Of a stretch of 64,000 bases of DNA, positions 23,900-64,000 are shown piece by piece. Source of the DNA: an uncultured virus (IMG/VR IMGVR_UViG_3300007346_000024). Lineage: Duplodnaviria > Heunggongvirae > Uroviricota > Caudoviricetes. A program made the translations under genes and the position numbers. Every line of letters begins with the position of its first letter. Position 1 is the first letter of the stretch. The notes under the pieces are model-generated. The model was given only the letters and a program-made list of their open reading frames with translations, had not been told where the DNA came from and made no database searches. Location of the stretch: IMG/VR virus record IMGVR_UViG_3300007346_000024; one strand, written 5' to 3'.

Positions 23900-24580
23900 T
23901 TATCCTACTAATGGCTTCCTGTTAGGGAATTGGAACTGAGATAAGTTTGGCTTAGAGTAAGCTTTACCTACGCTTCTTCCTGATAAACCTCTAGAAACAT
24001 CTAACTGCTCCATTGGGTATAATCTAACAGTAAGTGTAGCAGATGCTAAAACTGTAGTTACAACTTTAGTAAATGCGTTTACAGGGAATTTGTGACGAAC
24101 GATAGTCACACCTGACTGCTGCTGCATTGGGTCTAACGCAGGAGAAACAGGTAAAGTAACTTGTCTTCCGTTTGGCTCTCTGTAAGTAATTACTAACTGC
24201 TTGAACGGCTGTGAAGTGTTCGCAGACTGTAAGTACATTAAACCTACTTTGAAAGGCTCTGACTTAATAGACTCTAAGAACTCAGTGTAAGTTACGTCTC
24301 CATTATCCATTGTGATAGTGATAGCCGCAGGGTTACCGAAGTTAGTAGCTCCAAATAAGTTAGAGTTAGCTCCTAAAAATACTACATCTGATACATCATC
24401 AGTAGTTGAGTTAGCGATGTTAATGATGAAAGGCAAAGATGCTTTAGCTTCTGCACCTGCTCCTGCACCTGCATAGTCATAATCATCTGCGTAATCATAA
24501 GCATCAACGTTGTCCCAACCATCGTAGTTTGAATACTCCTCGTTTGCGAAGTTCATTGCGTCTGAAAAATAGTTTTCCAT
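23900..24580 (-). CDS. Putative major capsid protein, single jelly-roll type
   Basis: Acidic/aromatic leader then ~150-aa beta-strand-rich domain; own terminator; paralogous to 27031..29316; near packaging ATPase. Confidence 0.6.
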   Translation of the reverse strand: MENYFSDAMNFANEEYSNYDGWDNVDAYDYADDYDYAGAGAGAEAKASLPFIINIANSTTDDVSDVVFLGANSNLFGATNFGNPAAITITMDNGDVTYTEFLESIKSEPFKVGLMYLQSANTSQPFKQLVITYREPNGRQVTLPVSPALDPMQQQSGVTIVRHKFPVNAFTKVVTTVLASATLTVRLYPMEQLDVSRGLSGRSVGKAYSKPNLSQFQFPNRKPLVG

Positions 24581-29378: not shown

Positions 29379-30245
29379 TTAGTTCCCGTAGTACTTTTCA
29401 GTGTACTCCTTAATTAAAGTTTTAGCCAAAGCTTTGTGGTCTTTATGAATAGGTTCTCCTGTAAACAGGTCTTTCTTATTCATCATTGGCTTTACAACTT
29501 TATTATAGTTATCCTCAAGGTACTTATAGATAGCGTGTTGGAATTGTTTCTTAGAGAACTTTCCTTGAATCTTACCTGTGTCTTTGTTTAAGTAAGCGTA
29601 AAACCTTTTGTTACCTTCATGATACTCAAGGTCAACCATTTTCTCAAGAATCTTTAAATGCTCTAAAGTTCCTGCGAATTTGTTTTTATGCCTCTCTACA
29701 GAATCATCACACTTATGATAACGAATCCAATTTGCATTACCCCAAATCTTAGGGTGTGCGGCTTTACCAATTGTTTGGAAATGAGTTATAACATCTACAG
29801 AAGCATGTCTCTGAGTAACGATAGAACCAATTAAATCATTAGGCATTGAATCCGAAACGAATCTGTTAATATCTTCAATTAACAATAATCCATTATGATA
29901 GTGTTCCAATATGTAGCTCAATGCTTCAGAAAGTTCTTTTAAATTCATCTTTCCTCCACCTTCCTTAAGAATGCTAACTCGTCTAGCTTCAACTAAACTA
30001 GAGTCAGCAAACTTTTTAACATCTTCTAACCTTAAACCTTTTACGTTTATAAAATTAGGATTTTGGTCTTCTTGGACGTTACCAAACTCGTTATTAACAT
30101 CTAGTATTAATACCTTTCTAGGTTTAGCTCCTGTAATAGGATTTCCTTTCAAATAAGGTTGTAGCATCTCTAGAGTAGCGTATGTCTTACCTACTCCTTT
30201 TCTACCTACCGCTATTCCTAATAAAGGCTCTCTAAGATTTCCCAT
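29379..30245 (-). CDS. FtsK/HerA-superfamily (A32/P9-like) genome packaging ATPase
   Basis: Walker A GRKGVGKT near N-terminus, Walker B LLLIED, QRH arginine finger, HFQ motif; 288 aa with no nuclease domain. Confidence 0.75.
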   Translation of the reverse strand: MGNLREPLLGIAVGRKGVGKTYATLEMLQPYLKGNPITGAKPRKVLILDVNNEFGNVQEDQNPNFINVKGLRLEDVKKFADSSLVEARRVSILKEGGGKMNLKELSEALSYILEHYHNGLLLIEDINRFVSDSMPNDLIGSIVTQRHASVDVITHFQTIGKAAHPKIWGNANWIRYHKCDDSVERHKNKFAGTLEHLKILEKMVDLEYHEGNKRFYAYLNKDTGKIQGKFSKKQFQHAIYKYLEDNYNKVVKPMMNKKDLFTGEPIHKDHKALAKTLIKEYTEKYYGN

Positions 30246-36114: not shown

Positions 36115-37014
36115 TTACCAATTTAAGAAAGATAATTTCCCTGTAAAATATCCTTTATACTTTATCGAACCTCCTTTTGATTTTTTATCAATTCTATATA
36201 TAGCAGATATTTCTTCGTACTCCTCAATGTTTTCAGATAAGCTATATTCTCTAGGCTCTCCTCCCCAAGACTCAACTTCTAAAACCTTATCTCCATCAAG
36301 ATATATAGCGTAATGTCTTGGATTATCATCACTACCAAACTGCAAAACATCTCCGCTTTTTAAGCTATCAACTCCTTTATATGGTAGTTTATTAAACTCT
36401 TTAAAAGACCTGTCGTTATGTATCTTATTGCAGAACAATTCGCAATTCATGAAACCACCTTCGCTAACAACTTTTTTATAACGTTCAATTACTGAATCTA
36501 TCTCCCCACCTTTAGCGTACATAGAAACACCTGTAGAGTCTTCTACTCTTATCTCAGCATTAGGAAACTCTCTTTTCATTTCTCTGTAATAAGCAGGTAT
36601 CAATCTATAGTCTTGAATACTAATTTCTTGTTTTAATACTTTTCCTTTTTTAGTATCAACGGCTATAACTGAAAAAGGAGAAGCGTAATCCTCTATAGAC
36701 TTCATTATACCTCTTAAAGAACCTCCTTTAGCTAGCTCTGTCCCTTCGTAAGAAACAACAAGTAAACCGTCTTCATCATCTCCAACTTCCCAAACAGGCT
36801 CTCCTGACTTATCTTCTACTTCCAAGTACCAAACATCTTCTTTAGGATGCATAGCCTGAGCTGATTTAAAAATATCTTCAGCACTTTCATATTCTCCATT
36901 TAAAGAAAGGTCTCCAAGATATTTAGAATCTGAAGATATAATCGTAGCTCTATGTGCTTTAGATGCGTCAAAAGGGATTCCTATATAATTTGTTTTCATA
37001 ATGTTTTTTACCAA
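36115..37014 (-). CDS. GG-linked modular cargo protein with NlpC/P60-like module and LSFLNW tag
   Basis: LAKGG/YAKGG/KSKGG linkers; NCELFC...GDVLQFG...HYAIYLDGDKVLE; ends YFTGKLSFLNW. Confidence 0.65.
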   Translation of the reverse strand: MVKNIMKTNYIGIPFDASKAHRATIISSDSKYLGDLSLNGEYESAEDIFKSAQAMHPKEDVWYLEVEDKSGEPVWEVGDDEDGLLVVSYEGTELAKGGSLRGIMKSIEDYASPFSVIAVDTKKGKVLKQEISIQDYRLIPAYYREMKREFPNAEIRVEDSTGVSMYAKGGEIDSVIERYKKVVSEGGFMNCELFCNKIHNDRSFKEFNKLPYKGVDSLKSGDVLQFGSDDNPRHYAIYLDGDKVLEVESWGGEPREYSLSENIEEYEEISAIYRIDKKSKGGSIKYKGYFTGKLSFLNW

Positions 37015-38267
37015 TTTAAAAATGAAAGCTCTCCATTAAAATAAGAAGAACATGACAATAACCCCCCGTTTTTAAACCTAATTTTAAGACCTGAGTAGTC
37101 CTGAATATCTCTGTGTATGTACTGATAATCACCATCAGAAACAGCCTTAAACTTTTTATATATCTTAGGGACTTGTCTTTTGTTAGACCTGTCAGGAGTA
37201 TAAGAAACTAAACCTTTGTATTTAGGGTTTATATGATTCAAAGCTGCTAAATACATCATTGAGCCTAAACCTTTATTTCTATGACTTCTATTTATATCAA
37301 TAATAGATATTTTCATAAAATCATTAGAAGGACTTAATTCTAAGTAACCAACTTTTTCAGGGTTTCCCTTACCTAAATACCAAAGAGTTATATATGAAGG
37401 ATTGTCCTTGTTGTCAATAGCAATTTCATAAGGTTTGTAGTTGTGATAACCGCTATAGACTATATACCTACCTCCTCTGTCTATTACGCCTCCTTCTTGG
37501 AACAATATAGGCTTTATAAATTCTCTTTTTTTAGAATCTCTTAAAGACCTAATTTCATCTCTTTCTTCTCTAGTCGATGTTGAGTTGGAAGGGATTCTGT
37601 ATTTAGACTCTATTTCTGACAACTTATTAGATTTGCTTTCAGCAGATTCGTAAATTTCTTTAATATCTTCTAAAGAGAGGTTTTTAAATTTCTCTTTTCC
37701 AAATACATTGAATGAAAAAGGTTTTTTGTAAGTGTATAGAACTCTTGGGTTTAAAACGACAATTTCCTGTTCTGAAAAATCAGAACTCCAATCACCTATT
37801 TTAACAGCATCAACACCTTTGTCCCATAAGTCTTCGATAAAATCTTCTAACTCATTTGCGTCCGAAACATCAGGCATGTTTATAACTTTAGCTCCTTTTT
37901 TTACTAAAACTAAATAAACAGAACCGCTTCTCGAATCAGAAGTAAAATTTGAAGCAATATTTTTGCTTTTAGACAAAGACACACCCCAATACTTTTCTCC
38001 GTAGCCTCCTCCTCCGAGTCTCTCTATATCTCTATCAGACACTAATATGCTTGGTTTCAAAGCTGAACCAACATAAGAGCCTGTTCCGTGATAATATATA
38101 TGGTCAGCAAAGTCTTTATAGTTGTCATACTCCAATATATGTTTGTATATTCCGTACTCGCCATAACCACCTCTCCCTGATGACTTTAAAGCTCTTTTTA
38201 TTTTGTCTTTAGTCCAACCGTTTCTTGGTTTAGGATATATTGACCTGTGCTTATTGAGCAATGTCAT
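37008..38267 (-). CDS. ADP-ribosyltransferase plus GNAT acetyltransferase cargo protein with LSFLNW tag
   Basis: YYHGT...GVSLS...EQEIVVLNP (ART); FQEGG linker; IDINRSHRNKGLGSMMY (GNAT motif A); FKNGG; ends YFNGELSFLNW. Confidence 0.7.
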   Translation of the reverse strand: MTLLNKHRSIYPKPRNGWTKDKIKRALKSSGRGGYGEYGIYKHILEYDNYKDFADHIYYHGTGSYVGSALKPSILVSDRDIERLGGGGYGEKYWGVSLSKSKNIASNFTSDSRSGSVYLVLVKKGAKVINMPDVSDANELEDFIEDLWDKGVDAVKIGDWSSDFSEQEIVVLNPRVLYTYKKPFSFNVFGKEKFKNLSLEDIKEIYESAESKSNKLSEIESKYRIPSNSTSTREERDEIRSLRDSKKREFIKPILFQEGGVIDRGGRYIVYSGYHNYKPYEIAIDNKDNPSYITLWYLGKGNPEKVGYLELSPSNDFMKISIIDINRSHRNKGLGSMMYLAALNHINPKYKGLVSYTPDRSNKRQVPKIYKKFKAVSDGDYQYIHRDIQDYSGLKIRFKNGGLLSCSSYFNGELSFLNW

Positions 38268-38270
38268 TTT

Positions 38271-40487
38271 TTACCAATTTAAAAATGATAGCTTTCCTGA
38301 GAAATAACCTGAAGATTTAATTGAACCACCTTTTGCGAAGAATCCCCTATCTCTACCTTTTTCAAATAATTCCTTTTTTAACTCAAACCAACTAATCGCT
38401 TTTTTATCGCTATTATCCAAAACATCAATGCTGATTATATGCGACCATTGTTCTTCTAATTCGTCTAATGTTTTTTCAGTAATTACATATTTTCCTATTG
38501 TTCTACCTTTGGATAGTCCTTTCCAATGCAATTCAACTTCAAATTTCTCTCTTACCTCTCCACCTTTAGCGTATTCTCCATCCTCATACTCTTGTTGCCA
38601 CTCATTAGCATCAAAGTAATACATATCCTCTCCATCTTCTTGTAGAACAACATCGCCAACACCATTAGATTTTCCTTCCATAATGTTTACTTTAACTTGC
38701 TCTAAGATAGAATCATATTTTTCGATAGCATCATCTTCATTATTAAATTTATGGTTGTTAGCTTTTCCAAAATAAGTTGTAACCACATATTTGCCTTCTA
38801 CCTCTCCACCTTTAGCGTATTTTGTAATACCTTGCTCTCTCATATATTGAGTTAGGTCAGACTTTTTAGGTGCGTAAATTGAAGAATGATAGCCATTATC
38901 ATCATAAAGTTGTAAAGTCCAAACTTTTGAATTTGTTTCTTTAATTATCTCGCCTTTTAGTTCCTCTTCTACCTCTCCACCTTTAGCCATTTTTTGAATA
39001 ATAATCTTGTCGTTTGGATAAACTTCTTTAAGCTCTTCTAACTTTAACTCAACAAGCTCTTTATCTGAACCTCTGAAGTAAATTTTATTTGTGTTATCAT
39101 CAACTATGATGTACTTATCACTTACCTCTCCACCTTTAGCGAACAATATTTGTTCTCCATTTATTTCTTCTATTTCATAGTTTTCAGAGTTCATACAATT
39201 AGGTATGCTCGTTCCGTCTGTAAAATGAATTGTATCACTTGTAATTTCTTTTACAAATGACTTTTTTCTTCCATAAGGAGAATTAAATAATATAGTCCTA
39301 ACTGATTTTGATTTTGGGTTAATTGATAAATCGCATCCTACCTCTCCACCTTTAGCGTAATACCCTGTTTCATTAATACTTGTGTAAGTAACCTCAGCAC
39401 CATTAAAACCTTCTTCTGAGTCAGAGAATTTATTTCTAGCTTTATTTTCTGCTAAATCTTCACTTTCTGCTAAAATATCAGAATAAACTTTTTCTCCGCT
39501 TGTTCCTTCTTCTTCGTTTTCCCAATAAACAATAACCTCATATTCTTTTTTCAAAGAACCACCTTTAGCGTATTTTCCTTTACTAGATAAACCTTTCAAC
39601 TCTCTAAACAATTCATCAATATAGCTAATTGAATCATACTTACCAATAGAAACTGAATGAAAGTCATGCCTACCAAAACCTTTATCAACTGTTCTATCAA
39701 TATTAATATAATTGTATTTTGTTAGATTGTCATCTACAAACTTTCTTGCATCTATTAAACTATCAAAAACAATAGGAGTTTGTTCGTCCTTATCTGTATA
39801 AATTTCTATACTTCCACCTTTAGCATATTCTTCTACCTTGAATTTCATTTCTAATACTTGCTTTTTTCCTTTTTCTTTTCCCTCAAACCAATCATTAACA
39901 AACATTTCTTTTGCTTTTTTTATGGCTTCACTATTTGTCTTGGCTTTTACTTTGTAAAAATCATCCCCATATTTAAAGTCTTTACCACCATAAGTAACAA
40001 CTTTTACCTCTCCACCTTTAGCAAATTCTTCAAACCCTTCTAATTTATTTAATGAAACACCTATTGGTCTTAAACCATAAGGCTCATTATCTAAACCATA
40101 ATCAAAAGTATATCCTACCAATTCCATTTCTTTAAGGAAGTTCTTACTATCCTTGTAATTATAGTCACCTTCTATGATTTTAGCTTCGTACTTTTCATAT
40201 ATATCGCGAGCATCTTTTGGTAGCTTTTCGTAGTCCTCAAATAAATCTACCATTCCACCTTTAGCAAAAGAATTATGATATTTACTCATTTGCTTTTGAT
40301 GTATTTCAATTAAAGAGGTTTCAATAAAATTCTCATCTACTTCTTCATCGTATCTCTCACATAGGTTGTCAGTTAACTCCTCATATCTCTCGCTTTCTTT
40401 TTCAGAGCTAAATCTTCCTTGTTTTTTAACAAGTTGTATAAATTCTAATAAATCAGAATCTAACTCTATTCTTTTATCTTTTCCCAT
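38271..40487 (-). CDS. Polyprotein-like array of ~10 mini-domains separated by [FYM]AKGG, with LSFLNW tag
   Basis: Ten AKGG motifs separating unrelated ~50-80-aa modules; ends YFSGKLSFLNW. Confidence 0.75.
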   Translation of the reverse strand: MGKDKRIELDSDLLEFIQLVKKQGRFSSEKESERYEELTDNLCERYDEEVDENFIETSLIEIHQKQMSKYHNSFAKGGMVDLFEDYEKLPKDARDIYEKYEAKIIEGDYNYKDSKNFLKEMELVGYTFDYGLDNEPYGLRPIGVSLNKLEGFEEFAKGGEVKVVTYGGKDFKYGDDFYKVKAKTNSEAIKKAKEMFVNDWFEGKEKGKKQVLEMKFKVEEYAKGGSIEIYTDKDEQTPIVFDSLIDARKFVDDNLTKYNYINIDRTVDKGFGRHDFHSVSIGKYDSISYIDELFRELKGLSSKGKYAKGGSLKKEYEVIVYWENEEEGTSGEKVYSDILAESEDLAENKARNKFSDSEEGFNGAEVTYTSINETGYYAKGGEVGCDLSINPKSKSVRTILFNSPYGRKKSFVKEITSDTIHFTDGTSIPNCMNSENYEIEEINGEQILFAKGGEVSDKYIIVDDNTNKIYFRGSDKELVELKLEELKEVYPNDKIIIQKMAKGGEVEEELKGEIIKETNSKVWTLQLYDDNGYHSSIYAPKKSDLTQYMREQGITKYAKGGEVEGKYVVTTYFGKANNHKFNNEDDAIEKYDSILEQVKVNIMEGKSNGVGDVVLQEDGEDMYYFDANEWQQEYEDGEYAKGGEVREKFEVELHWKGLSKGRTIGKYVITEKTLDELEEQWSHIISIDVLDNSDKKAISWFELKKELFEKGRDRGFFAKGGSIKSSGYFSGKLSFLNW
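38553..40022 (-). repeat. Six identical 18-nt direct repeats GCTAAAGGTGGAGAGGTA encoding AKGGEV
   Basis: Copies at 38553, 38799, 38970, 39123, 39339, 40005; four further partial copies. Confidence 0.85.
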
Positions 40488-40503: not shown

Positions 40504-41907
40504 TTACCAATTTAAAAATGACAAATGACCTTCAAAACAACCTTTTTTACGACCTTTGATTTTACCTCCTTGCTCGTAAAGCTTTCCTGAGTCTCTGTAC
40601 TCTTTGATTAACTCATTATAAATACCCTCAAGCATAGGTACATGACTATCTCCTACGAACATTTCAGACATAATATGAGACTTAAACTCATCTGTAGGCT
40701 TGTATTTATAATTACCTGCATAAGTATTAAAAAGGGCTTTCATTTCATCTTTAAGCTCTTTCTTAAGCTTAGCATCCTTTTTAGCTTTAATCCTTTTTCT
40801 AGCAGCTTCGTTCTTAGCCTCGATTTCTTTTTTCCTGTCTTCTTTAGCTTTCTTGTCAGCTTCTTCCTTAGCTTTTAACTCTGCTTTCCTAGACTCTTCT
40901 TTCTCTAAATCAGACTCGATATGTTCTCTAGCTTCTGACTCAGTATCAAACATTCCGTAAGAAACCTTGTTCATCGAATCTTTAGGGACTTCAAAGCCTC
41001 CTTGAGCAAGTTCGATATAAGTAACTCCCATGAACTTACTCTTAACGTCTTCTTTAGGCTCTTCAAGTAACTCATAATTAATAGCTACATAATGAACAGC
41101 TCCGAAAACATCATCATCACTCATAGCTCTAAAAAGCTCAGGATAACCAAACCCTTGATTCTCTGATAATTCTTCCATAACAGACTCTCTAGAACCCGTA
41201 GACATGTCTATATCATCAAGGTCTAACTCGTAAGCATCAGCAACACTCTTAATAGCTTTGTAAACCTTGTCATCACTCAACGCTCTAACTATTGCAGAAG
41301 GGTCTATACCATGCTCAACTTCTAAGTGTTCAACAGCAGCAATTCTATCACCTGTTTCAGCAGGTATTCCCGCTGATTTTAATCTGTCTTGAATTTCAGA
41401 ATGGTCTAACTCACCACCTCTAGACATCTTTTTTGCAGGTTCTTTTTTTACAACCTCGAAAGAACTCAATAAGTCAGAAACTTGCTTTCCATCCTCGTAT
41501 TTAACTGTAACAGTTTTTTGGTCAGGAATAGCCGAGTCAACACCTACAGCTATAACTTCTCCAATCATTGTAGCTTTAGGATATTTAAGATAGTCCCCTA
41601 TTTCAACAGAACCTCCTCTAGACATTTTTTTTACAGAATTCATGCCTACCAATCTTTTCTGATGAGCTGTTCCATACTCAGAAACATAATCAATAATCTC
41701 TTTTTCAATCTCATCTAACTGCTCATTCGATAAGCTAGAAAACTTTTTTATACCCGATAGATGAGAATGAGTTTTTGGAAGGTTTCCATTAGTCTGAATA
41801 CTAAAACCTCTTTCCCCTTTAAAACTTAACTTAATTGCTTGATTACCATTTCTATCCTTCTTTCTAGAATGCAAATGGATTTCTGAATTATTTAACTTCT
41901 TAGCCAT
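40504..41907 (-). CDS. GG-linked modular cargo protein with LSFLNW tag
   Basis: MSRGG x2, YEQGG; ends CFEGHLSFLNW. Confidence 0.7.
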   Translation of the reverse strand: MAKKLNNSEIHLHSRKKDRNGNQAIKLSFKGERGFSIQTNGNLPKTHSHLSGIKKFSSLSNEQLDEIEKEIIDYVSEYGTAHQKRLVGMNSVKKMSRGGSVEIGDYLKYPKATMIGEVIAVGVDSAIPDQKTVTVKYEDGKQVSDLLSSFEVVKKEPAKKMSRGGELDHSEIQDRLKSAGIPAETGDRIAAVEHLEVEHGIDPSAIVRALSDDKVYKAIKSVADAYELDLDDIDMSTGSRESVMEELSENQGFGYPELFRAMSDDDVFGAVHYVAINYELLEEPKEDVKSKFMGVTYIELAQGGFEVPKDSMNKVSYGMFDTESEAREHIESDLEKEESRKAELKAKEEADKKAKEDRKKEIEAKNEAARKRIKAKKDAKLKKELKDEMKALFNTYAGNYKYKPTDEFKSHIMSEMFVGDSHVPMLEGIYNELIKEYRDSGKLYEQGGKIKGRKKGCFEGHLSFLNW

Positions 41908-43626: not shown

Positions 43627-45516
43627 TTACAAATTTTTAAGCATCTCTAAAGTTTCAAGCTCTTCTTTTAATTGATTATAAGATTCAGGGTCATCCTCTT
43701 CAGAGAATATCTCTAACATCTCTTTAATAGCCTCGTACTCATCAATAATTTGCTGCATATCAGCATCCACTTCTTCCTTATCGCTCTCTACATCATCGTC
43801 TAAATCTAAAGAATCTAAGTCTATTTCATCAACCTCCTCTTCCACTTCTTCGATTGTTGGCTCAGGCTTAGCTTCAGGCATAGCTGATTTATCACTAAGA
43901 CCAATAATAGAAAGCCCTGTTATCTCTGTAACATCTCTTAAGAAATCAAACGTTTCTGAATCAGCACTTCTTAGCTTGCTATAAACTGTATCTAGCTCAT
44001 ATACTAATTCTACTTTATCAGGTATAGAAAGTTTCTCTCCATCAGTCTTTATCAATCCTATAACATTCCCTGACTGAACAATTTGCAAGAATTCATCAGA
44101 ATATAAAAACTCTATATTCTTTCCATAGTACTTCTTAAAATAACCAATGCTTAAAGCGGTAACTGAAACATATTTACCATTTTCAAGATAGAAATAAGTC
44201 CTAGACTTTGAGAATATTGAAGGTGTACCGAAGTCGTTGTATGACATCAAAGGGTATGCCTTTTTTTGATTTTTAAAAGAAGATTTAGAAACTACTCCTG
44301 ACTCTCTATCAAATTTACTTACATCAATCGTATTAGATTTTAAATGTGTTCCTACTTCGTAAAACGAAAAATCTTTTAATTGATTTGGAGAATAATAAAC
44401 AGTTGAGTTAACTTGAATAAAAGAACCTCCTTTTTCGTACATATACTGAACAGGTATGTAACAATAATCAATATAGTTGACACCGTATTGATAGTGAGGG
44501 CTTAATTCAGAAGAAACACTACTTAAATTTTCGTCTTTCTCAAAACTTTTAAGGTTTTTGAATATTTTAACAGCGTTGTTTTCATTGTCTGAAAAAGTTC
44601 TTCCTGTAATAGCTTTATCAAACTTACTATTCACTAGTTCGTCATAATATTCTGTATCAAAAATATCTTTCTTCAATGATGCATCTGTAAGACCAAGCAT
44701 ATCAGAATAGAAAGAGTTGTCAAATAATGGAATTAACTCCTCTAAAAGCTCTTCATTAGCTCCAACAATATAAGCCTTGCTTCTTTTCTTTACAGCTTCT
44801 TCTAATAAAGATGTTAATGATAGTACGGTGTCCGTAGCATTAACATCACTAGGGTATGAGAAAATTATTTTTGCAAAGAAATTAGGAAGCAGAATCATGA
44901 AGTAGTCACTACCATTAGCCCCTTCTTGATGATAAATCTTATTATCACTTTTAGAAACACTAAGTATAACAGCTAAATTAGCTATAGCTCCATACATAGA
45001 ACCTCCTGAAATAACCCATTCGTAACCAAACAAATCCGAATCAATAACTTCTTCAGCACCTTTTTCCTCTTTTTCCTCTTCTTCCTCTTCTCCCTCTTCA
45101 GACTCATCTAAGTCTAATTCATCTAAGTCTAATTCATCAACATCAACAGACTCTTTAGAAACTCCTTCTTTTTCATCGTCTTCTAATTCAATATCGGAAT
45201 CGTCTAAGTCTAAGTCGTCTAACGTCAACCCTTCTAGGTCAAAGTCTATATCAGAAATATCTATGTCTATTGAAATATCGTCTTTAGACTTAACTCCGTA
45301 CCCCATATCTTTAGCTTTTTCTATGAAAGATTCAGATTTTATAAAGTTGTTAAAATCCCTTAAAGCTATTTCGTATTGTTTAACTGTTAACTCATCTAAC
45401 AGACCTGATTCAACAAGCTCACCAAGAGCCTTCAATTCAACGAAGGTCTTGTAAGCTACTTTATCAATCTTTTCAAGCTCTACGCTACTAATTCCTAATG
45501 CTTCTAAAGCTTTCAT
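43627..45516 (-). CDS. Large acidic protein with (D/E)LDLD repeats and C-terminal helical hairpin
   Basis: 629 aa; coupled to helicase gene. Confidence 0.65.
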   Translation of the reverse strand: MKALEALGISSVELEKIDKVAYKTFVELKALGELVESGLLDELTVKQYEIALRDFNNFIKSESFIEKAKDMGYGVKSKDDISIDIDISDIDFDLEGLTLDDLDLDDSDIELEDDEKEGVSKESVDVDELDLDELDLDESEEGEEEEEEKEEKGAEEVIDSDLFGYEWVISGGSMYGAIANLAVILSVSKSDNKIYHQEGANGSDYFMILLPNFFAKIIFSYPSDVNATDTVLSLTSLLEEAVKKRSKAYIVGANEELLEELIPLFDNSFYSDMLGLTDASLKKDIFDTEYYDELVNSKFDKAITGRTFSDNENNAVKIFKNLKSFEKDENLSSVSSELSPHYQYGVNYIDYCYIPVQYMYEKGGSFIQVNSTVYYSPNQLKDFSFYEVGTHLKSNTIDVSKFDRESGVVSKSSFKNQKKAYPLMSYNDFGTPSIFSKSRTYFYLENGKYVSVTALSIGYFKKYYGKNIEFLYSDEFLQIVQSGNVIGLIKTDGEKLSIPDKVELVYELDTVYSKLRSADSETFDFLRDVTEITGLSIIGLSDKSAMPEAKPEPTIEEVEEEVDEIDLDSLDLDDDVESDKEEVDADMQQIIDEYEAIKEMLEIFSEEDDPESYNQLKEELETLEMLKNL

Positions 45517-48500
45517 TATTTTCTAAGTTTTATTAATTTATTAGACTTCTCAAACGACTTAACAACATCGTCAACATCTAAGTTATCAACTTCTTTTCTT
45601 TTACTAAGGATTTCAAGCCAATTTTTCTTGATTTCTTCCTTAAATAACTCATCATTGCTCAACCTTATTTTGTCATCAGCTATTGAATCTTCAAAAGATT
45701 TGATAATATCAGGTATATCATTAAATTTTTTTCCTTCGTTAACCACTAACTCTTCATAACCTTTAAGTATTGCTGAGTTTTCAGAAGGTTTGTTAGAGCC
45801 TTGAGTAAATCTATATATAGAAACTCTTTCAGACTTTCTAACCATAGTCATATCGTCTAGACCTAATATTAAAACAGTTGTTCTACCCATAAACTTAAAT
45901 AACGAGTCTTCATTACCTGTTAGTGAAGATGGTTTTTTGTAAACCTTGATTTTATCATCATCTTCATACATATTACTGTCATCTGTATTAACAGTAGCCT
46001 TAACATAAGGGGAATCATGCCAAATCTTAAGAACCTTAAAAGATTTTTTAGACTTTTTATCTATCCCTTTTATCTCAGCAGCTTGTTCTTCTATTTCCAT
46101 TCTGAAAAGACCTCCTTCAACCTTATAAGCAGATGAAAGTTCTTTTAAAATTTCAGTAAGAATAGGCTCTATAATAGAATAAGGAGTGTTTTCGTTAATA
46201 TCTGACTCTAAAGAAGGTATTGGATTTGAAAAATCTAACTCATCAAATACTGCATCAATCTCGCCTTGAGTAGGGTTAAATTTAGCTTTAAGCTCTTCTA
46301 CATCACTTCTGAACTCTTGCTCATACAACGTCCAACTTGGTTTTTTAGAGTCCTTTTTAGCTTTATACTTTTCACCTTCAGCATCAGAAAGACCTTCAAA
46401 CTGAACTCTAAGTTCATTTTTGAACTTGTTAACGGCTTTTTTCATTTCAGGTTTTCTAGACTTAAGAATCTCTTTTTCAATATCATTCTTTTTCTCATCA
46501 ACGTTTAACTTACTTAGCTCCTTTGCTAAATAATTTATAGTAGGTAAATAAGATGATATTTGAGTTTTTAAACTTTCGTATTTCTCGCTAATATTTCTAA
46601 GCTCAGAAATCTTTTTGTCTAATCTGTTAACATTGTTAGAAAGCTCTGATTTTCTCTGATAGAACTCAATCTTAGTCAATAAATCAGGGTCAGTAATAAG
46701 ACTTAATAGACGCTCTCTTGCGTTCATAGTAAACTGAGTAGTGTTCATATCATAAACACCCGCTTCTAACATTCTTTTAATGTTATTGATTTTTCTATTA
46801 AGCTTATCATAAACGAATGCGTCAATAGAGTTAAGTGCTAAAACATATACAATTCTAACGTTGTCATAAGGGTTTTTCTGTCTCCAAATTCTTCCTTCTA
46901 ACTGCATTGAAACTGTTGGTGAGAACTCCGCTTGAGCAATGTACATTGTATGAGAGTTACCTTGTAAATCAATACCTTCCTTGATTGCCTTAGAACCTAA
47001 AAGAATTTTAACTTTTCCGTTGTTAAATTGGTTTTTAATTAAAACTTTACCTCTTCTAGTTATTTCACCTTTTTTATTCTTAGAAGAATCATCTTTAACA
47101 CCTTTACCCGCAATAATAGCAACCTCAGTAAACTCTCCTGACTTTTCAAATTTTTCATCAGAAATGCCATCTACATATCTTGTGATGTATTCTGCTAATA
47201 ATTCAAATGCATTATAAGTTGTCCCTTTGTAAGTAAACTTAATTTTATTAAAGTACACTACCTGACCACCAATTTTTTCAATATCACCTTTCTTCAATTG
47301 CTCTTTTTGATAGTTTATTGTAGACTGAATAGCTTTAACAATAAATAAAAGCTTTGGTGAATTCTCTACAAAAATCTTAGCAGGGTCAGGAGATAAATCA
47401 GGAAGACCTTTGTAAACTAAGTCTCCATCCTTTCCAACCTTAACAAAGTAAGGGCTTATTACTAATTGCTCCTGAACCGACTGACAAGTGATTGCTTTAG
47501 CTTGAATAACTTTGTCTTTTGAAACGGCTGATAAATCAACGTCAGATTCGCTTGTAGAAAACTCTTCTTCAACATCTTCTTTTGATTCTCCTAAAACGCT
47601 TATTCTAGTCTTTTTAATCAGGTTTATTAACTTCTTGTTACCTGAATACATTACTAATAATGCGGCTTCTAATTCCGCTACTAAATCCTGTATAGCTTCA
47701 AAATCCTTGACTTTTTTGAAATCATTTATCTCTGCTCTTTTCTCTTTTATATAGTCTTCAACTTCTGAGTCAATAGATATTTCTGATTCTGATTTAATAG
47801 ATTCAGCAGGGAACATTTCTGATAACAACCTAGTTTCATTATCATCTCTAAGATAGTCCAAGATAATCTCTTGCATTTCCTTTTGTATCTTAGAAAGACC
47901 TACTCGGCTTGACACTCCTTCTAGCTCACTGAAATACTTTCCTGAAACCGTTACCTGAGTATCACCTTGATTGTCAATTTTTTCTTGAGGTAATACAGCC
48001 TTAACAGGTCTGCTTTTCTCAATAGCGTCATCAGTGATTTTAACATTTGAAACATTTGTAATCAAGTTACTTAAAGCCTTAGAGTTGTAGTACCCTTCGA
48101 TAGTAGGGAATAAACCTATATCTCCATTATGCTTAACTCCGTACTGATACGATTCTTTAACATAGTTATTAAAGAAGTCAAAAGAATTGTTAATCCCACT
48201 AGAAGTAAGCATCTTCTTATTGGAAAGACCTAATACGGATATAACCTGTAAAGGATGGTCTGTAAAAGGTGTAGCTGAAAGCATTAAAACGTTTCTAGAA
48301 TCTTTGTTTTTGTCTTGTATAAAAAAGCTTAGTGCAGCTAAGTTTAACTTGTTCTTATTAGCTGAAACCCAAGAACTATCATATTTAATAACTGCTTTAT
48401 CTTTAGCTCCCTTAGCGTTTTGAGTATCCTCCTGAACAGGGATATAAAGCTTATAACCATATCCTGAATAAAGGTATTGGTCAATGTTATTTATCTTTTC

Positions 48501-51500
48501 TTTTTCTTTACCGCTCTCTCTTCCCGCTTTATAAGATTTAGCAGAAACCTTACCTATAATGTTGTTAAAATTATGGATTTCATCAACCACTAATATGTCA
48601 ATTTCTAACTTATCTAAAGATACAGGGTGCTTTTGAAGTATATTATAAGCCTGACCGTATCCTGATTTAGATACTTTCCTCCATTCTGATTTCTTGTTAT
48701 ACTCAATCTCTTCATTAGGCTTAACCTCTCCTAATCCTAGTTTATAATGAAGGGCTTCTTGAACAGATTTAATACTAGGTCTAAGTCTTTCTACAGCTTT
48801 GTGAGTAGCTACAAATATTACGTTATCCTCCATGACTTCACTCTTATAAGAGCCAATTTCGTCTATAAGCCTAATATTAAAGGTGATAACTATCTCTTTT
48901 AGCTCTTCCTGAAGTTGGTTTGATGCTTTTTCTGCAAAAACCTCTCTATCGTCTTCATATTTTTGCTTTTCAGAATCAGTTATACTAGCGTTAATCTTAT
49001 TAGAGTAATCCTCGTAATTAGGCATTGTTTGTTCATAGATAGACATATACGAGTCTTTCATTAACTCAAACATATTATCGCTTAAGAAAGTGTATTTTTC
49101 ATAATCAGGTATTAAAGCCTTAATCTCTGATTTTAAAATCTTAACAAACTCTTCGTAAGACGACTTACTTGAGTAATTGTTTTCAAAAGCAAACATAATC
49201 CTGCTCTTAGGGAGAGCTTTATTGATTATTTTATCAACTGAAGATATTACTTCTTTAAATTTTGAAAGAAGATTTTCTTCACTATCTGTAAAAGGATTTT
49301 TAAGATTTCTAAGAGCTTTTTCTCTTGCATTTCCTAGTGGGAAAACTTTTGCATTAGGGAATAAACCATGAGTATCTGAATCACCTGTAATTTCTGTGAA
49401 AAACTTATCATAAACAGAAGTTGGAACTAAGAATAAAGCTCTTCTACCTTCTCCTGTATTGAACATCTGATTGGTGTAAGTGATAGATGTAGTTGTCTTA
49501 CCAAAACCTACCTCATGAAGAAGTAACCCACTATTATTATTAGCCGTTACATGTCTAACACCTTCCAACTGAGCTTCTCTAAGACCGAATTCAAAAGCGT
49601 TATCTCTTTCTCCAAAAAGAACATTATGTGTAACGAACACGGGCTGCTTAAGCAAGTCAGGCTTAGAGTAGTTATTATAATAAGTATTCCAAAGTTTGTC
49701 TATTGTCTCCTGAGAATCTTCCGTTAGAGCTTCTTTTAAGAATTTATTAAAAAGCCTTCTACCTTCGTTAGCACAATCCCATCTTCTCTCTAGAAAACTT
49801 AACTCTAATTGAGAATATATGTTTTCACTTTCTTTATCTGTGACAACATCAGGCGACTTTAAAAGACCTTGTTCATAAAACATATCTCTAGTCCAAGCCC
49901 TAGACCTAGTTAAAGTGTTTTTAGTGTACTTGTCATTATTCCTTTTAACATCCGATAAATCAATACCTTTTGAGTTACCATCTTTATCTTGCCAATAAGG
50001 AGCAATCCAATTATAGATATAATATCCTTTATCTACAGGCATTACATAAGCTTCCTTGATTTCATCTACACTAAAGTTCCCTAGAATTTGAGATGATGGC
50101 AACGATGTCAACCACCCCATAAATAAGGACTTAATACCCGTAACCCTACTATTTGAAGAGTAACCTGTAACTGTTTCAATTCTTATTCTAGGTGCGGCTC
50201 TACCTGTAGAGGATGCTGTATCTACGCTTGCATTATCTTTTAAAGTGTAAGACGCTTTGTAAAATATAGGGCAGTGAATATCTATGTTTAATCTGTTCGC
50301 CTCATCTTCCGCTTGATTACCCGTTGGCACAGGATTGATTGTTGGAACGAACCTATTCTCTATAGCTTCATTGATAATCTCTAAATGATTTCCTTCTATT
50401 TCAGAACCTTTTTCTTCTCCGTAGTATTTTTTAAGGTACTCTAGAAAAGAGTCAGACTCTAACTCATCTTTCTTTTCGTATATGTTTTTAGAAATAAAAT
50501 CATTTTTATCGCTATACTTTATACGTGCTATAAAATCTTTCTCACTTACGAAAATATTATTAACGAATAAAAACCCTTCCTCTATAAGCTTTTCAGAAAT
50601 AACATCTTGAAACAACCAATAATCTAGACCTAGTATTTTTAATGACAAATATCTATACCCTGTCTTATTTCCTTTAGACAAGAAGTAAGCTAACAGTTCG
50701 TCTACACTAATGTTTTGATTATAAGTCCAATAAGACTCTTCAATTTTATAAACATAATCAATCTTTTTCCAAGACTTTTTAGGCTTAGCCTTTCTAACTT
50801 CTTTGCCGTCTTCTTTTGATAAATATGTATAACTATCAATATAACTTGAAACAACATCATCAACGTAAGAAAGTCTGTCCTCTAAACTAGACGTACTAGC
50901 TATTACCTTTTGGTCGTTATATATTGAAACTAAATTAGGGTATTCCGAAATAAACTCCTTATTCAACATTAAAGGTATGTTTGTAGCAGGGTTTATTAGA
51001 GATATTTGCTCCCTTAAAGAGTATTCGCTAAACAGGAACTCTACGTAATCAACGTAAAAAGTATTTGTAGTTAAACTAACGTCTTGACCTTCTATTATTG
51101 AGTAGTTAGGGCTTTTTACAGTAATCTTCTTTCTTTCTTGAAATATGTTGTCACTTTGTACAAGCTCTTCTCTAACAACCTCTGTGTCTTTTGCTAGAAT
51201 TACTAATTTATTATTCTCTTCATCAAAATAAAATCTAGCCTCAGTCTCTCCATTTATAATCAACAAGTATAAAGACTGAAACAAATCAATAGAATCAGCA
51301 TAAAAGGATTTGTTCGACTCTATATCGAATACCATTTTATAAGTAATACCTCTATCAATAACCTTGCTTAAATCACTTGACTGTATAGTTAAATTTATAG
51401 CATTATTTACCTTATTAAATAACTGAATAATATCTATTGAACCTGTAAATACAGAATCATCTTTTCTTAATTCAGATATATAGCTACGCATCTCTTTAGC

Positions 51501-52301
51501 ATTCAAACCTATTTCTGAAGAAGTTCTTCCTGTTTTAGAAGGCTCTCCATTTGAGCTATAGTAAAACTCATCAGTTGTATAGTTAACTGTGTCTGAATTT
51601 ATATCTTCAGTTATTTTATTAGGCGAAACATTAGTGTAGCTATTCTTTGTTTTTTGAAATACAGAACTAGATGGAGAATGGAAAAAGTAACTTAGGTAAT
51701 CTCCTTTATTTCCAAAAGAATCCCAAGCCTTGCTCTTTGTTAAAATACTATGATTAGCTATCTGAAAAAGATAACTAAGTGTAAACTGATTAGATATATT
51801 AACATTATAATCCAAACTAGAACTTCCTTTTACAGGTGTTACTATTGAGTAAACAGGAAGGTTTTCAATACTAAAAGACGGAGATGACTTCCTGATAAAT
51901 TTACTCTTGCTAATAGCTAATGTATTAGCAAAATAAGCCAACATTTCCTTATAATCTTCTACCGATAAAGTAGAGTTAGGAAAGTCGTTTTGAATAAAAA
52001 TACCAATACTATACTGATAGCTATATGTACTGAAAATAAAATCAAGAGACTTCTTAAGCTCATGATTATCAACTGTCTTATCCGAGTTTAAGCCTTTTAA
52101 TTTGGAAGGGTCTATTAATGTTTCTTTGCTATCATACGTTCCCTCAAACTTAGCTTGAACAAGCTCTTTGTATTGCTTGTACTCTATACCTCTTTTCTGA
52201 CAGTCTTCCTTTATAGCTTTAACGAGTTTTGCTTGCTCAGCAACTCTTGTAATCTCCTTAAGAGTATATTTTAACATATTCTTACAGTTAAATGTTATCA
52301 T
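45516..52301 (-). CDS. Giant SF2/SNF2-type helicase (DarB-like polyvalent protein)
   Basis: HEVGFGKT, LVVDEIHNF, LSATP, EGIDLQ, QLEGRIWRQKN; 2261 aa. Confidence 0.8.
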   Translation of the reverse strand: MITFNCKNMLKYTLKEITRVAEQAKLVKAIKEDCQKRGIEYKQYKELVQAKFEGTYDSKETLIDPSKLKGLNSDKTVDNHELKKSLDFIFSTYSYQYSIGIFIQNDFPNSTLSVEDYKEMLAYFANTLAISKSKFIRKSSPSFSIENLPVYSIVTPVKGSSSLDYNVNISNQFTLSYLFQIANHSILTKSKAWDSFGNKGDYLSYFFHSPSSSVFQKTKNSYTNVSPNKITEDINSDTVNYTTDEFYYSSNGEPSKTGRTSSEIGLNAKEMRSYISELRKDDSVFTGSIDIIQLFNKVNNAINLTIQSSDLSKVIDRGITYKMVFDIESNKSFYADSIDLFQSLYLLIINGETEARFYFDEENNKLVILAKDTEVVREELVQSDNIFQERKKITVKSPNYSIIEGQDVSLTTNTFYVDYVEFLFSEYSLREQISLINPATNIPLMLNKEFISEYPNLVSIYNDQKVIASTSSLEDRLSYVDDVVSSYIDSYTYLSKEDGKEVRKAKPKKSWKKIDYVYKIEESYWTYNQNISVDELLAYFLSKGNKTGYRYLSLKILGLDYWLFQDVISEKLIEEGFLFVNNIFVSEKDFIARIKYSDKNDFISKNIYEKKDELESDSFLEYLKKYYGEEKGSEIEGNHLEIINEAIENRFVPTINPVPTGNQAEDEANRLNIDIHCPIFYKASYTLKDNASVDTASSTGRAAPRIRIETVTGYSSNSRVTGIKSLFMGWLTSLPSSQILGNFSVDEIKEAYVMPVDKGYYIYNWIAPYWQDKDGNSKGIDLSDVKRNNDKYTKNTLTRSRAWTRDMFYEQGLLKSPDVVTDKESENIYSQLELSFLERRWDCANEGRRLFNKFLKEALTEDSQETIDKLWNTYYNNYSKPDLLKQPVFVTHNVLFGERDNAFEFGLREAQLEGVRHVTANNNSGLLLHEVGFGKTTTSITYTNQMFNTGEGRRALFLVPTSVYDKFFTEITGDSDTHGLFPNAKVFPLGNAREKALRNLKNPFTDSEENLLSKFKEVISSVDKIINKALPKSRIMFAFENNYSSKSSYEEFVKILKSEIKALIPDYEKYTFLSDNMFELMKDSYMSIYEQTMPNYEDYSNKINASITDSEKQKYEDDREVFAEKASNQLQEELKEIVITFNIRLIDEIGSYKSEVMEDNVIFVATHKAVERLRPSIKSVQEALHYKLGLGEVKPNEEIEYNKKSEWRKVSKSGYGQAYNILQKHPVSLDKLEIDILVVDEIHNFNNIIGKVSAKSYKAGRESGKEKEKINNIDQYLYSGYGYKLYIPVQEDTQNAKGAKDKAVIKYDSSWVSANKNKLNLAALSFFIQDKNKDSRNVLMLSATPFTDHPLQVISVLGLSNKKMLTSSGINNSFDFFNNYVKESYQYGVKHNGDIGLFPTIEGYYNSKALSNLITNVSNVKITDDAIEKSRPVKAVLPQEKIDNQGDTQVTVSGKYFSELEGVSSRVGLSKIQKEMQEIILDYLRDDNETRLLSEMFPAESIKSESEISIDSEVEDYIKEKRAEINDFKKVKDFEAIQDLVAELEAALLVMYSGNKKLINLIKKTRISVLGESKEDVEEEFSTSESDVDLSAVSKDKVIQAKAITCQSVQEQLVISPYFVKVGKDGDLVYKGLPDLSPDPAKIFVENSPKLLFIVKAIQSTINYQKEQLKKGDIEKIGGQVVYFNKIKFTYKGTTYNAFELLAEYITRYVDGISDEKFEKSGEFTEVAIIAGKGVKDDSSKNKKGEITRRGKVLIKNQFNNGKVKILLGSKAIKEGIDLQGNSHTMYIAQAEFSPTVSMQLEGRIWRQKNPYDNVRIVYVLALNSIDAFVYDKLNRKINNIKRMLEAGVYDMNTTQFTMNARERLLSLITDPDLLTKIEFYQRKSELSNNVNRLDKKISELRNISEKYESLKTQISSYLPTINYLAKELSKLNVDEKKNDIEKEILKSRKPEMKKAVNKFKNELRVQFEGLSDAEGEKYKAKKDSKKPSWTLYEQEFRSDVEELKAKFNPTQGEIDAVFDELDFSNPIPSLESDINENTPYSIIEPILTEILKELSSAYKVEGGLFRMEIEEQAAEIKGIDKKSKKSFKVLKIWHDSPYVKATVNTDDSNMYEDDDKIKVYKKPSSLTGNEDSLFKFMGRTTVLILGLDDMTMVRKSERVSIYRFTQGSNKPSENSAILKGYEELVVNEGKKFNDIPDIIKSFEDSIADDKIRLSNDELFKEEIKKNWLEILSKRKEVDNLDVDDVVKSFEKSNKLIKLRK

Positions 52302-58430: not shown

Positions 58431-60257
58431 TCAAGATATAGCTATCGTTTCTAGTAAATCTAGCTCGTCTTTAAGCTGCTTAATATCTTCTTTTGAGGCG
58501 TATGTAGTGTCTGAAAGAAGTAATTTTATTGTTTCTATTTCATTTTTAATTTGAATCAAGTCTTCATCATCAGAATCCTCGTCAGTTGAAAACAAATCCA
58601 TCTGAGCCTCTTCTGCCTCTTCCGTAAGAACCGCTCCTTTATCTAAAATAGACTCGTAAAGCTCTCTAATAGATTTAACTTTAAAAAACCCTTCTTCTTT
58701 AAGCCAATATTCAAGCTCGAAGAAACCATCTCTTGTAAAGAATAAATACTTAACAATATCCTCCTCTTTAGCATCGCTTAAAATATCTACAACATTAGAA
58801 TCATTGCTTTGCTCATAAAAAGCCATTAAGTTCTCGTAGCTTTTAATACCCGCTCTTTCAAAATCTCTCCTTGTTTCTCTAGGAGCAGCTTTAAGGTAGT
58901 CTTTTAGCTCTTTATCGTTTGTTATGTCTTCGTTCTCAACTATGTAGTCTATATCGTTTGAAAATGTATGTACAAAATCTTTAACATCAATCTGATAAAC
59001 CGACTCGGTCACATCTCCTTCTTTGCTTGTAGCGTCTATTAAATAGTCAAGCATCTTAACTTCATTCTTTGAAAGCTTTTCTTCGTCAATCCTATCTGTT
59101 ATTATCCAATTATAGATTCTAAACAGATTAGACCTGTTTCTTTCATTCATTGACTTGCTAAGGTCTGATTTCTTCCATTGGTTAAAATAACCAACTTCAC
59201 CACCTTTACGCATGATAATATCAGGGTTATTAGGGTCGTACATTCCTGAATTACCAATAGCTGATTTTATATGAGTAGGCTCAAAAACTATATAATGAAG
59301 GTCTCCATACTCAATACCTTCCATAGGCATCCCGTTTTTCCTACCCTGACCAAATTCATTGTAAGCATCCTGAATTATACCATCAAAACCATAGTCTTCT
59401 AATCCTTCTCTGATTATCTCAGAATTAACAAGCTCACCTTCATCATTAGTAGCGTAAAGCATCGTCTCTTTTAAAGCATTAAAAAAGTCTTTTGGAGTCA
59501 TTCTAGCCTCCTCATCAGTAAACTTGTTTTTCAATGTCTCAAGTTCTTCAATATTTACATCGTTATAAGAATTAGATGCTGATACTATCTTGTCAATAAT
59601 ATCAATCGCGTTGCCCTCTATTTCAGGGTTGTAGTCATCATAGTATTTTTCACGCTTAAGGTCTTCTATAGCATCCTCATACTCCCAATCCTCATCGTAA
59701 TCACCCCTATCTATCTCTCCCTTAGCCTCATCCTCATAATACTCCCAATCAATCTCAGCAAATATTGTTTCTTCATCTGAAGACATGTCAAAAGGATTTT
59801 CCATTTTTATAAAAGCAGGTATAACAGCTCCGTCATGCTCTCCTTTTAGTTTTTTAGTGGCTAATCTTTTTGAAAGGGTTTCTAGAAGCTCTTCGTTATC
59901 TCCGTTTTCAATCTCTTCAGCAACAGAAATATCTATATCGAATAAATCAACAAGCTCATTAGCATCCATGTTTTCAGCTTGAGATTTTATTTGGTCTGAC
60001 TTTCCTTCAATATTATTAGTAAGGTCAGCTCCTATTCCCGCATAATTAATACTCGCATCATCCGCTGAAGTTGTGAAGTAGTAACCTATACCTACAGCGT
60101 TACCGATAGTACCTCTATCAGGTTCAAAGCTATCGAAATCATGAGTCGTCCCATGATAAACAACTAAAGGCTCCCCATCTTCATCTACAACTTTACTTTC
60201 TCCAAACCAACGCTTAAAATTAGCGTTGTCCAACATTGATTTATTCATATTATTCAT
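58431..60257 (-). CDS. ART-PolyVal-type ADP-ribosyltransferase fusion protein
   Basis: FKRWFG.SKVVD.DG.PLVVYHGT...GYYFT...P.F.KMENP...GFDGII...YIVFEP..IKSA.GN.G.YDP...DI; MRKGG linker. Confidence 0.8.
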   Translation of the reverse strand: MNNMNKSMLDNANFKRWFGESKVVDEDGEPLVVYHGTTHDFDSFEPDRGTIGNAVGIGYYFTTSADDASINYAGIGADLTNNIEGKSDQIKSQAENMDANELVDLFDIDISVAEEIENGDNEELLETLSKRLATKKLKGEHDGAVIPAFIKMENPFDMSSDEETIFAEIDWEYYEDEAKGEIDRGDYDEDWEYEDAIEDLKREKYYDDYNPEIEGNAIDIIDKIVSASNSYNDVNIEELETLKNKFTDEEARMTPKDFFNALKETMLYATNDEGELVNSEIIREGLEDYGFDGIIQDAYNEFGQGRKNGMPMEGIEYGDLHYIVFEPTHIKSAIGNSGMYDPNNPDIIMRKGGEVGYFNQWKKSDLSKSMNERNRSNLFRIYNWIITDRIDEEKLSKNEVKMLDYLIDATSKEGDVTESVYQIDVKDFVHTFSNDIDYIVENEDITNDKELKDYLKAAPRETRRDFERAGIKSYENLMAFYEQSNDSNVVDILSDAKEEDIVKYLFFTRDGFFELEYWLKEEGFFKVKSIRELYESILDKGAVLTEEAEEAQMDLFSTDEDSDDEDLIQIKNEIETIKLLLSDTTYASKEDIKQLKDELDLLETIAIS

Positions 60258-60690
60258 TTTCTAAGTCAACTATCAAAAGTTCAAATTCATTCGGGCTTAA
60301 TATCTCGTAAACCTCATCAAAATAAACTTGTTTACGATTCATACACGCATATGAATTTATGTACTCACCCTTATCTAATTCACCCTTGAAAAAGTTAGTG
60401 AAATTAGTATTATGATACCTGTAAATGGAGTTATCTCCATGATATTCTAAGTCAAAACCTTTTTGATATTCTTTAAAAGCATCGAACAATAGAATCTTAG
60501 CACTTCTGTAGTTGATGATAACTTTATAAATATAGCCCGACTTGTGCTTTCTGCTCACCATGAATGGGTCGCTAAAAAGTTCGGGAATCCATCCTATTGA
60601 GTCCCAATCGTATTTTTCAAATACCTCGTTACTATGAAAATAAAACGATTCCATTACCAATTTAAGAAGCTCAATTCTTCTATAAACCAA
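60250..60690 (-). CDS. Hypothetical protein
   Basis: Aromatic-rich ORF; true start likely MESFYF (TAATG-coupled at 60654). Confidence 0.55.
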   Translation of the reverse strand: MVYRRIELLKLVMESFYFHSNEVFEKYDWDSIGWIPELFSDPFMVSRKHKSGYIYKVIINYRSAKILLFDAFKEYQKGFDLEYHGDNSIYRYHNTNFTNFFKGELDKGEYINSYACMNRKQVYFDEVYEILSPNEFELLIVDLENE

Positions 60691-62792: not shown

Positions 62793-62813
62793 TGCTTTTT
62801 TTAAATTCTGATG

Positions 62814-62821
62814 CAAAGGTA
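62814..62821 (-). promoter_or_regulatory. -7 box TACCTTTG
   Basis: TAnnTTTG 22 nt upstream of ATG 62792. Confidence 0.55.
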
Positions 62822-63950: not shown

Positions 63951-64000
63951 AGCTTGTGTTATTGTGTTGTTCAAATATATACAGTCCCGATTAAAAAAAC

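Follow-up and report, generated by a model that had tools for sequence, protein, structure and literature searches.

In-frame exchange of modules, with junctions at a short coding linker, in polyvalent-type proteins of an uncultured virus

Polyvalent proteins of phages and conjugative elements combine numerous unrelated domains within a single virus-encoded chain, in architectures that vary (Iyer et al. 2017, PMC5512222). A chain of this type was found in 64,000 nucleotides (nt) of DNA from an uncultured virus (IMG/VR IMGVR_UViG_3300007346_000024; hereafter the window), which form part of a 93.9-kb contig found in freshwater metagenomes. Here, an open reading frame (ORF) at 38271–40487 encodes 738 amino acids (aa), in which ten copies of a linker peptide, [FYM]AKGG, punctuate a series of small modules. 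Relatives and neighbours of this ORF hold a common stock of polyvalent hallmark domains (ART-PolyVal, LPD11, ArdA, SNF2, methylase and ddrB-ParB); the 738-aa protein itself had no match in Pfam or NCBIfam, and its two unnamed PHROG matches fell on the second module. The locus differs from polyvalent proteins in that each border is occupied by a fixed linker, where exchange takes place, in that the modules are small, and in that the zincin is a separate gene; a zincin has been proposed for the processing of polyvalent proteins (PMC5512222, in the part available). Neither 'linker' nor 'shuffl' occurs in the main text of that paper.

Two other described systems resemble the locus in part. In African swine fever virus (ASFV), pp220 and pp62 are cut at Gly-Gly-X by pS273R (PMC10308890, in the part available); Gly-Gly likewise marks the borders of parts here, in a virus that is probably tailless. 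However, the host here is probably bacterial, no C48-family protease was found, and module shuffling is not described for ASFV in the available part of PMC10308890. Phage mosaicism through short conserved flanks and Red/RecET (PMC2327257, in the part available) likewise depends on exchange through short shared sequence, and RecT is encoded in 4 of 5 related records here. Unlike those flanks, the sequence shared here falls within a single reading frame, with some ten copies in each gene, and protein-level selection maintains it.

Integrons are defined by IntI and by attI/attC cassette arrays. The array resembles them in that small cassettes are gained, lost and reordered at a recurring site, giving an open-ended library, but neither tyrosine recombinase nor palindromic attC was found for it; its modules abut through 11–18 coding bases, its cassettes are fused in one frame without stops of their own, and the site itself is coding and degenerate. 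Literature searches, with most subscription papers and supplements outside their scope, gave no description of the motif or of the virus group; the available part of PMC5894146 mentions neither 'protease' nor 'polyvalent', and bioRxiv 2025.08.03.668216, as far as available, was unrelated. What the locus adds is real: polyvalent-type proteins with a demonstrated shuffling joint, and with it a concrete, base-resolved route to the variable architectures of polyvalent phage proteins. Being frame-safe and recombinase-light, the joint is also of interest for protein engineering.

Modules are exchanged in frame at the linker

Division at the ten motifs gave nine internal modules, flanked by an N-terminal piece and a 17-aa tail (Table 1). 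A sequence-only reading of this locus had described ten AKGG linkers, six of them identical 18-mers, between non-homologous modules of about 50–80 aa. The linkers were confirmed by exact search and motif count: the 18-mer GCTAAAGGTGGAGAGGTA occurs at 38553, 38799, 38970, 39123, 39339 and 40005, always on the minus strand. The modules were dissimilar as described (the best pair in module-against-module BLASTP reached only E 0.18), but the internal ones span 51–85 aa. Searching for GCTAAAGGTGGAGAGGTA with up to three mismatches gave 9 matches, where the chance mean was 0.10 and 0 of 100 shuffles gave 9. The 11-mer core GCTAAAGGTGG was identical in 9 of the 10 linkers, and the tenth differed by one wobble base.

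A homologue search, biased toward module 2, returned 238 proteins, of which the 120 listed ones were analysed; each carried 4–17 motifs. Among the 119 listed proteins other than the query, module 2 recurred in 106, module 10 in 14, and each of modules 7 and 8 in 2. Shared modules sat at any slot, and close relatives varied by whole modules, by order and by duplication. A whole-protein search of viral contigs gave no relative, because sharing is limited to single modules. A further 161 loci were gathered by searching with the 18-mer, with module 2 and with a core gene nearby (for one query, 80 of 197 were kept); together with the window, these gave 119 distinct ORFs with at least 4 motifs, from 84 loci.

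Module 2 of the window matched that of locus L008 at 96% identity across 260 nt, in a stretch that opened shortly before the upstream core and closed with the final base of the downstream one, and the five remaining matches between the window and this 56-kb record each reached at most 70%. Such borders were then counted among 119 related polyprotein genes, using segments of at least 100 nt and at least 90% nucleotide identity with flanks less than 50% identical, after removal of duplicates. This showed that segments started at a linker in both genes in 82 of 99 cases, where 11.5% was expected, and ended at one in 69 of 93, where 9.5% was expected; in total, 151 of 192 clean junctions were at a linker in both genes, against an expectation of about 10%. 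Under looser segment criteria, 118 of 180 starts and 82 of 176 ends lay at linkers. Junctions peaked at the two edges of the core (-11 for its first base, -1/0 for its last); identity rose at the first core base and fell from 1.0 to 0.40 at the base following GGTGG. Modules are exchanged in frame, with junctions at the linker. The insertion, deletion and reordering that had been proposed were thus seen among relatives as gain, loss, duplication and reordering with linker breakpoints; the linker is the breakpoint, but the shared unit is the 11-bp core and not the 18-mer.

One contig of run X7 tracked the window for 1.5 kb and changed to different sequence exactly at the last linker (20 letters, in a single contig), and its alternative module end had no match among the proteins compared. 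In run X9, also with the window's virus, the L008-type upstream flank appeared as a loose end. Separately, a four-residue start of module 2 was fused directly to a linker in P0011, and P0004 had two linkers separated by 3 aa.

Across 227 chains, which carry up to 24 motifs each, 1560 internal modules (median 74 aa) fell into 648 families, 401 of them singletons; the linker thereby breaks down hundreds of dark proteins into candidate effectors with borders already set. Module 2 was adjoined by 67 left and 71 right neighbour families, a module family was repeated inside 21 of the 227 polyproteins, and none of the internal modules contained a transmembrane-like stretch. In each of five genomes the motif occurred 15–47 times, concentrated in a few ORFs, where about one occurrence was expected. 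Known anti-restriction and toxin-like domains occur among the module families, and the cargo of relatives includes ArdA, LPD11, ART-PolyVal, a zeta-like kinase and RelA/SpoT. Anti-host roles for the modules may be read from these domains; the 'effector' in the effector library that had been proposed has this basis. Relatives have other tails in common; 56 of 384 proteins, for example, finish with a basic stretch of the form RKxGExWxxAxxRA.

A search for stand-alone homologues of each module had been proposed; for module 2 one was found, as a mini-gene. Of 66 module-2 matches in the loci, 44 lay in chains with at least 2 motifs and 19 in ORFs without the motif, 15 of the latter being stand-alone genes of 63–85 aa. 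Like the free genes, module 2 of the window starts with Met, here placed immediately behind Gly-Gly, and it may thus have been captured by fusion of a free gene. For modules 3–10, two relatives of module 10 and nothing else were found as shorter homologues among 8000 candidates scored.

Copying of the linker and selection on its peptide

Within the ORF, the probability that six AKGGEV copies are identical in any string was 2.8e-9, given window codon usage and with codons taken as independent. GCT, AAA and GGT are the most frequent window codons for Ala, Lys and Gly, but GAG and GTA are minority codons, and Gly-Gly is spelled otherwise in other window ORFs. It follows from this probability that codon bias does not explain the identity of the linkers, of which it had been named as a possible partial cause. 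The full 18-mer was identical in 46% of 54 same-ORF linker pairs, in 0 of 15 pairs from different ORFs of the same locus and in 4.9% of 1727 different-locus pairs (AKGG linkers; pairs with flanks more than 35% alike excluded). Control codons differed little among the three classes, and the same-ORF excess therefore indicates that linkers are copied within a gene. The 18-mer is not kept invariant, as the copy at 40005 had a synonymous last-base change in 3 of 4 sequencing runs (X7, X9 and X15). The exact 18-mer had 7 matches in viral contigs, 3 of which (L001, L003 and L006) lay in unrelated genes, and 749 linkers of the family used 181 core spellings, only 146 being exact.

The peptide is also constrained, a point beyond the sequence-only reading. 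All 166 cores in ORFs shared one frame, and the spacing of adjacent cores was a multiple of 3 in 232 of 241 cases. When linkers were chosen by the DNA core alone, the preceding residue was Tyr, Met, Phe or Leu in 162 of 166 (codons ATG, TAC, TAT, TTT and TTC), and the second residue after Gly-Gly was Ile, Val, Thr, Leu or Met in 162 of 166, through unrelated codons. Hydrophobic flanking residues encoded in this way indicate selection on a peptide that reaches past the crossover core. Motifs also avoided Pfam domains, with 2 found within 32 domains against 24.9 expected. The linker is under both DNA-level copying and peptide-level selection. Any likeness of the end of the core to the Chi site of E. 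coli is accounted for by its Gly-Gly codons.

Mechanism and alternatives

It is considered fairly probable that these are polyvalent-type virion cargo polyproteins, in which the joint serves both as a protease site and as the microhomology for in-frame module exchange. Small autonomous modules would be joined by the peptide [FYM]-A-K-G-G-x-[IVTL], and a protease cut after Gly-Gly would free mini-proteins in the virion or at infection, with the core zincin and a module here called the GE module (Table 1) as candidate enzymes. Gene context suggests that the chains may be packaged in the virion, the C-terminal LSFLNW tail being a possible targeting signal. As the encoded peptide and its frame are alike at all joints, these offer 11–18 bp of microhomology; a joint-to-joint crossover would delete, duplicate, insert or swap whole modules with the frame kept, whether within a gene, between paralogous genes or between co-infecting viruses. 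Each event would copy the linker, so that linkers in one gene would remain alike and the array recombinogenic. New modules would arrive on the rare occasions when a free phage mini-gene is fused to a linker; a free source has been shown for module 2 only.

A more far-reaching version can be advanced only tentatively. It would be a self-maintaining cassette system of a new kind, in which one 11-bp coding word is both protease and crossover site, and in which tailless bacterial viruses, a large group so far undescribed, draw without any integrase on a common, open stock of mini-proteins, hundreds in number, with anti-host and virion roles. The GE module would then have a new fold and act on this word as its protease or its reader, perhaps sharing its origin with the Gly-Gly joints of tape measures.

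The zincin and the GE module each occurred in 5 of 5 related records, 4 of which contributed to the respective profile. The predicted fold of the zincin was M48/M78-like, with leads below the naming threshold of the Atlas. The GE module has invariant His, Glu, Glu and Thr residues. All 116 listed carriers of at least 400 aa had the linker motif, 112 of them at least 3 times, and the module was present in at least 1811 clusters formed at 50% identity, from which the virus group appears large. Its fold was predicted with pLDDT 74.9; weak BFVD rows were long viral proteins, one of them a tape measure. When profiles of the putative capsid protein, the ATPase, the zincin and the GE module were compared with solved structures, none had a match. 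Separately, a 925-aa tailed-phage protein (L005:1–2775) has many aromatic-x-x-GG motifs and a short module shared with tape measures; 552 phage records contained this module, and of the 30 listed most were tape measures. Homology between it and the GE module was unsupported (probability 0.11).

As to the crossover itself, RecET joins homologies of 5–13 bp at low rate (PMC2327257, in the part available). A PD-(D/E)XK nuclease was detected in G001 and G005, which are among the RecT-bearing records, and RecT with an exonuclease may catalyse linker exchange. ORF 63042–63974 of the window was considered as a RecT and had no detectable RecT similarity.

Several results weigh against a joint that is both cut and crossed over. 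Regarding the enzymes, no Gly-Gly-type cysteine protease was found in related records (C48, the Ulp1/SUMO-protease-like type, PF02902, 0 of 5; C39, 0 of 5), no core family had invariant His and Cys, and the fold of the GE module had no match in the PDB and none in BFVD at E 0.001. PF00770 and PF03290 had no match in Pfam scans of the listed ORFs, no genome-wide search having been aimed at them. The zincin may act on another motif, [FY]xN[AFY][DT]G, which occurs exactly or nearly at aa 16 of the putative capsid protein (23900–24580), in its acidic N-terminus, in 21 of 31 rows; this motif is a candidate substrate of the core zincin. A loose GG motif was also present in 13 of 31 capsid-like proteins. 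Regarding exchange, 41 of the 192 junctions were off-linker in at least one gene, the 151 at linkers share ancestry and are not independent events, and alignments extend into any conserved linker, so that no crossover position inside the core can be assigned. No linker-to-linker deletion joints were found in assembled contigs of 4 runs, and the three full-length members of the 4-member cluster containing the ORF had one identical module order, from which shuffling appears slow. No RecT was seen in G004 or among the 75 ORFs scanned in the window, which leaves out 30 kb of the contig. Finally, six of the ten modules (1, 3–6 and 9) had no outside homologue.

It is rather unlikely that shuffling proceeds as described while the peptide stays uncut, acting as a docking or packaging tag or as a structural joint, so that the chain would be a scaffold of cargo domains and the GE module a possible reader. 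Selection on both sides of Gly-Gly (hydrophobic at -5 and +2) also suits a strand-addition binding motif, several small ORFs have lone motifs near their N- or C-termini, and the failure to find a protease of the Gly-Gly type fits as well; some polyvalent proteins are delivered uncut (PMC5512222, in the part available). However, packaging does not need ten tags per chain, modules also exist as free proteins, and Gly-Gly-X is a known cleavage signal of viral polyproteins (PMC10308890, in the part available).

That a site-specific recombinase of the virus or host, so far unrecognised, reads the 11-bp core and excises or inserts circular cassettes, as in integrons, is improbable. It would suit the sharp junction peaks, as well as the base after the core, shared in only 59% of start-type junctions. 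AKGG makes up 50% of 266 breakpoint linkers against 25% of 814 linkers, and the whole family has a GCT AAA GGY bias above background codons, absent at the last wobble base. Yet the core has many spellings, junctions also fell at EAGG, ADGG and EKGG, and 81 of 266 junction pairs mismatched at 2 or more core bases. Phage_integrase (PF00589; control 14 of 14) and Resolvase (PF00239) were each found in 0 of 5 related records, which are possibly incomplete; no tyrosine or serine recombinase matched among the 75 window ORFs, and none of the core gene families resembles a recombinase. Inverted partner sites were also lacking, with 12 reverse-complement core 8-mers against 445 forward ones in 330 kb, and none of the 25 longest of 35 inverted repeats paired its arms around a linker. 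The array is not an integron: tyrosine and serine recombinases were found in none of the 5 relatives, palindromic sites are lacking, and the linker is spelled in many synonymous ways; the integron-like library that had been proposed holds for the cassette behaviour but not for the machinery, none of which was found.

Recombination blind to the linker, with breaks made anywhere, those at domain borders surviving selection and gene conversion making linkers alike, is still less probable. About one-fifth of junctions were off-linker and some carried stubs, such as those of P0011 and P0004, but flexible flanks would allow breaks tens of bases away, whereas most junctions clustered at a few positions, in register in the two genes; the same-ORF excess of identical linkers itself requires linker-linker pairing. 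Codon bias or chance in an ordinary multidomain protein, for all that the commonest codons are used for Ala, Lys and Gly, is refuted by the probability of the six copies, by the minority codons and by the module exchange observed. Neither an invariant module order nor a linker identity expected from codons was found, so the cassette reading was not refuted on either point.

Genome setting

The coordinates of the polyprotein and of other features are given in Table 1.

Table 1. Features of the window, with the modules of the 738-aa chain in order of translation
Feature	Coordinates	Strand	Remarks
Polyprotein ORF	38271..40487	-	738 aa, open; N-terminal module, nine internal modules and C-terminal tail
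Module 1	40254..40487	-	aa 1-78; first linker at its end (core 40255-40265); homologues in own cluster only
Module 2	40011..40253	-	aa 79-159; core 40012-40022; most widespread module
Modules 3-6	39129..40010	-	aa 160-453; cores 39814-39824, 39559-39569, 39346-39356, 39130-39140; orphans
Module 7	38976..39128	-	aa 454-504; core 38977-38987; homologues at 55-60% aa identity in P0050 and P0082
Module 8	38805..38975	-	aa 505-561; core 38806-38816; copy in P0011 96% identical (aa), with other neighbours
Module 9	38559..38804	-	aa 562-643; core 38560-38570; orphan
Module 10	38325..38558	-	aa 644-721; variant core 38326-38336; listed homologues at most 84% identical (aa)
C-terminal tail	38274..38324	-	ends LSFLNW; same peptide in four other motif-bearing window ORFs
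Motif ORF	36115..37014	-	same motif and LSFLNW tail; modules recur in P0002, P0003 and P0004; NlpC/P60 E 0.0011, below cut-off
Neighbour ORF	37008..38267	-	2 degenerate motifs and LSFLNW tail; GNAT E 0.0007, just below cut-off
Neighbour ORF	40504..41907	-	3-4 degenerate motifs and LSFLNW tail; two modules common to P0011
GE-module ORF	60654..61349	-	starts with GxxHxxGGI..ExExxE; 2 motifs, LSFLNW tail; candidate motif reader or cutter
HExxH..E zincin-like metallopeptidase	16259..17020	-	core gene in structural gene block; candidate maturation protease
Putative major capsid protein	23900..24580	-	core gene; fold unconfirmed
P-loop ATPase	29379..30245	-	core gene
SNF2 helicase protein	45516..52301	-	polyvalent-protein hallmark
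ART-PolyVal protein	58431..60257	-	polyvalent-protein hallmark

Besides these features, the window encodes a glucosaminidase and many small proteins with hydrophobic C-termini. The DNA encoding the five LSFLNW tails has diverged, and a sixth ORF (35104–35640) ends in IFNW; the tail is possibly a packaging or membrane-targeting signal. The ATPase is presumably, by family, a packaging ATPase. Terminase, portal and tail families were absent among the 75 window ORFs scanned, and the virus may be tailless with a jelly-roll capsid. This is stated conditionally because capsid fold, profile, Atlas and cultured-phage searches gave no match: the single-sequence fold of the putative capsid protein had pLDDT 33.9, no Atlas match exceeded 0.79, and a search among cultured phages gave none. 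The Atlas labels zincin clusters mostly as Uroviricota, which points away from a tailless virus.

Thirteen records, from phages of Cellulophaga, Polaribacter and Tenacibaculum, contained relatives of module 2, which hints at a host in the Flavobacteriia; such proteins have 175–219 aa, and the two inspected were without annotation.

Other observations concerned individual genes. The ORF at 32608–33039 is a stand-alone, basic core gene whose end is like the last module of P0050 and of ORF 26333 in G004, which suggests that core genes, too, can become captured modules. The motif [FY]xN[AFY][DT]G, or one of its type, was also present in small structural ORFs at 23365–23811 and 61351–61650. Five 15-nt tandem copies at 42533–42629 encode a Pro-Ala-Lys-Lys-Ala repeat in ORF 42006–43076, of a histone-H1-like style. 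The protein encoded at 62373–62870 is phosphatidylserine-decarboxylase-like, which is of interest if the virion holds a membrane. In L133 (18643–20066), the putative capsid gene was present in two tandem full-length copies, and G001 and G003 had shorter paralogues.

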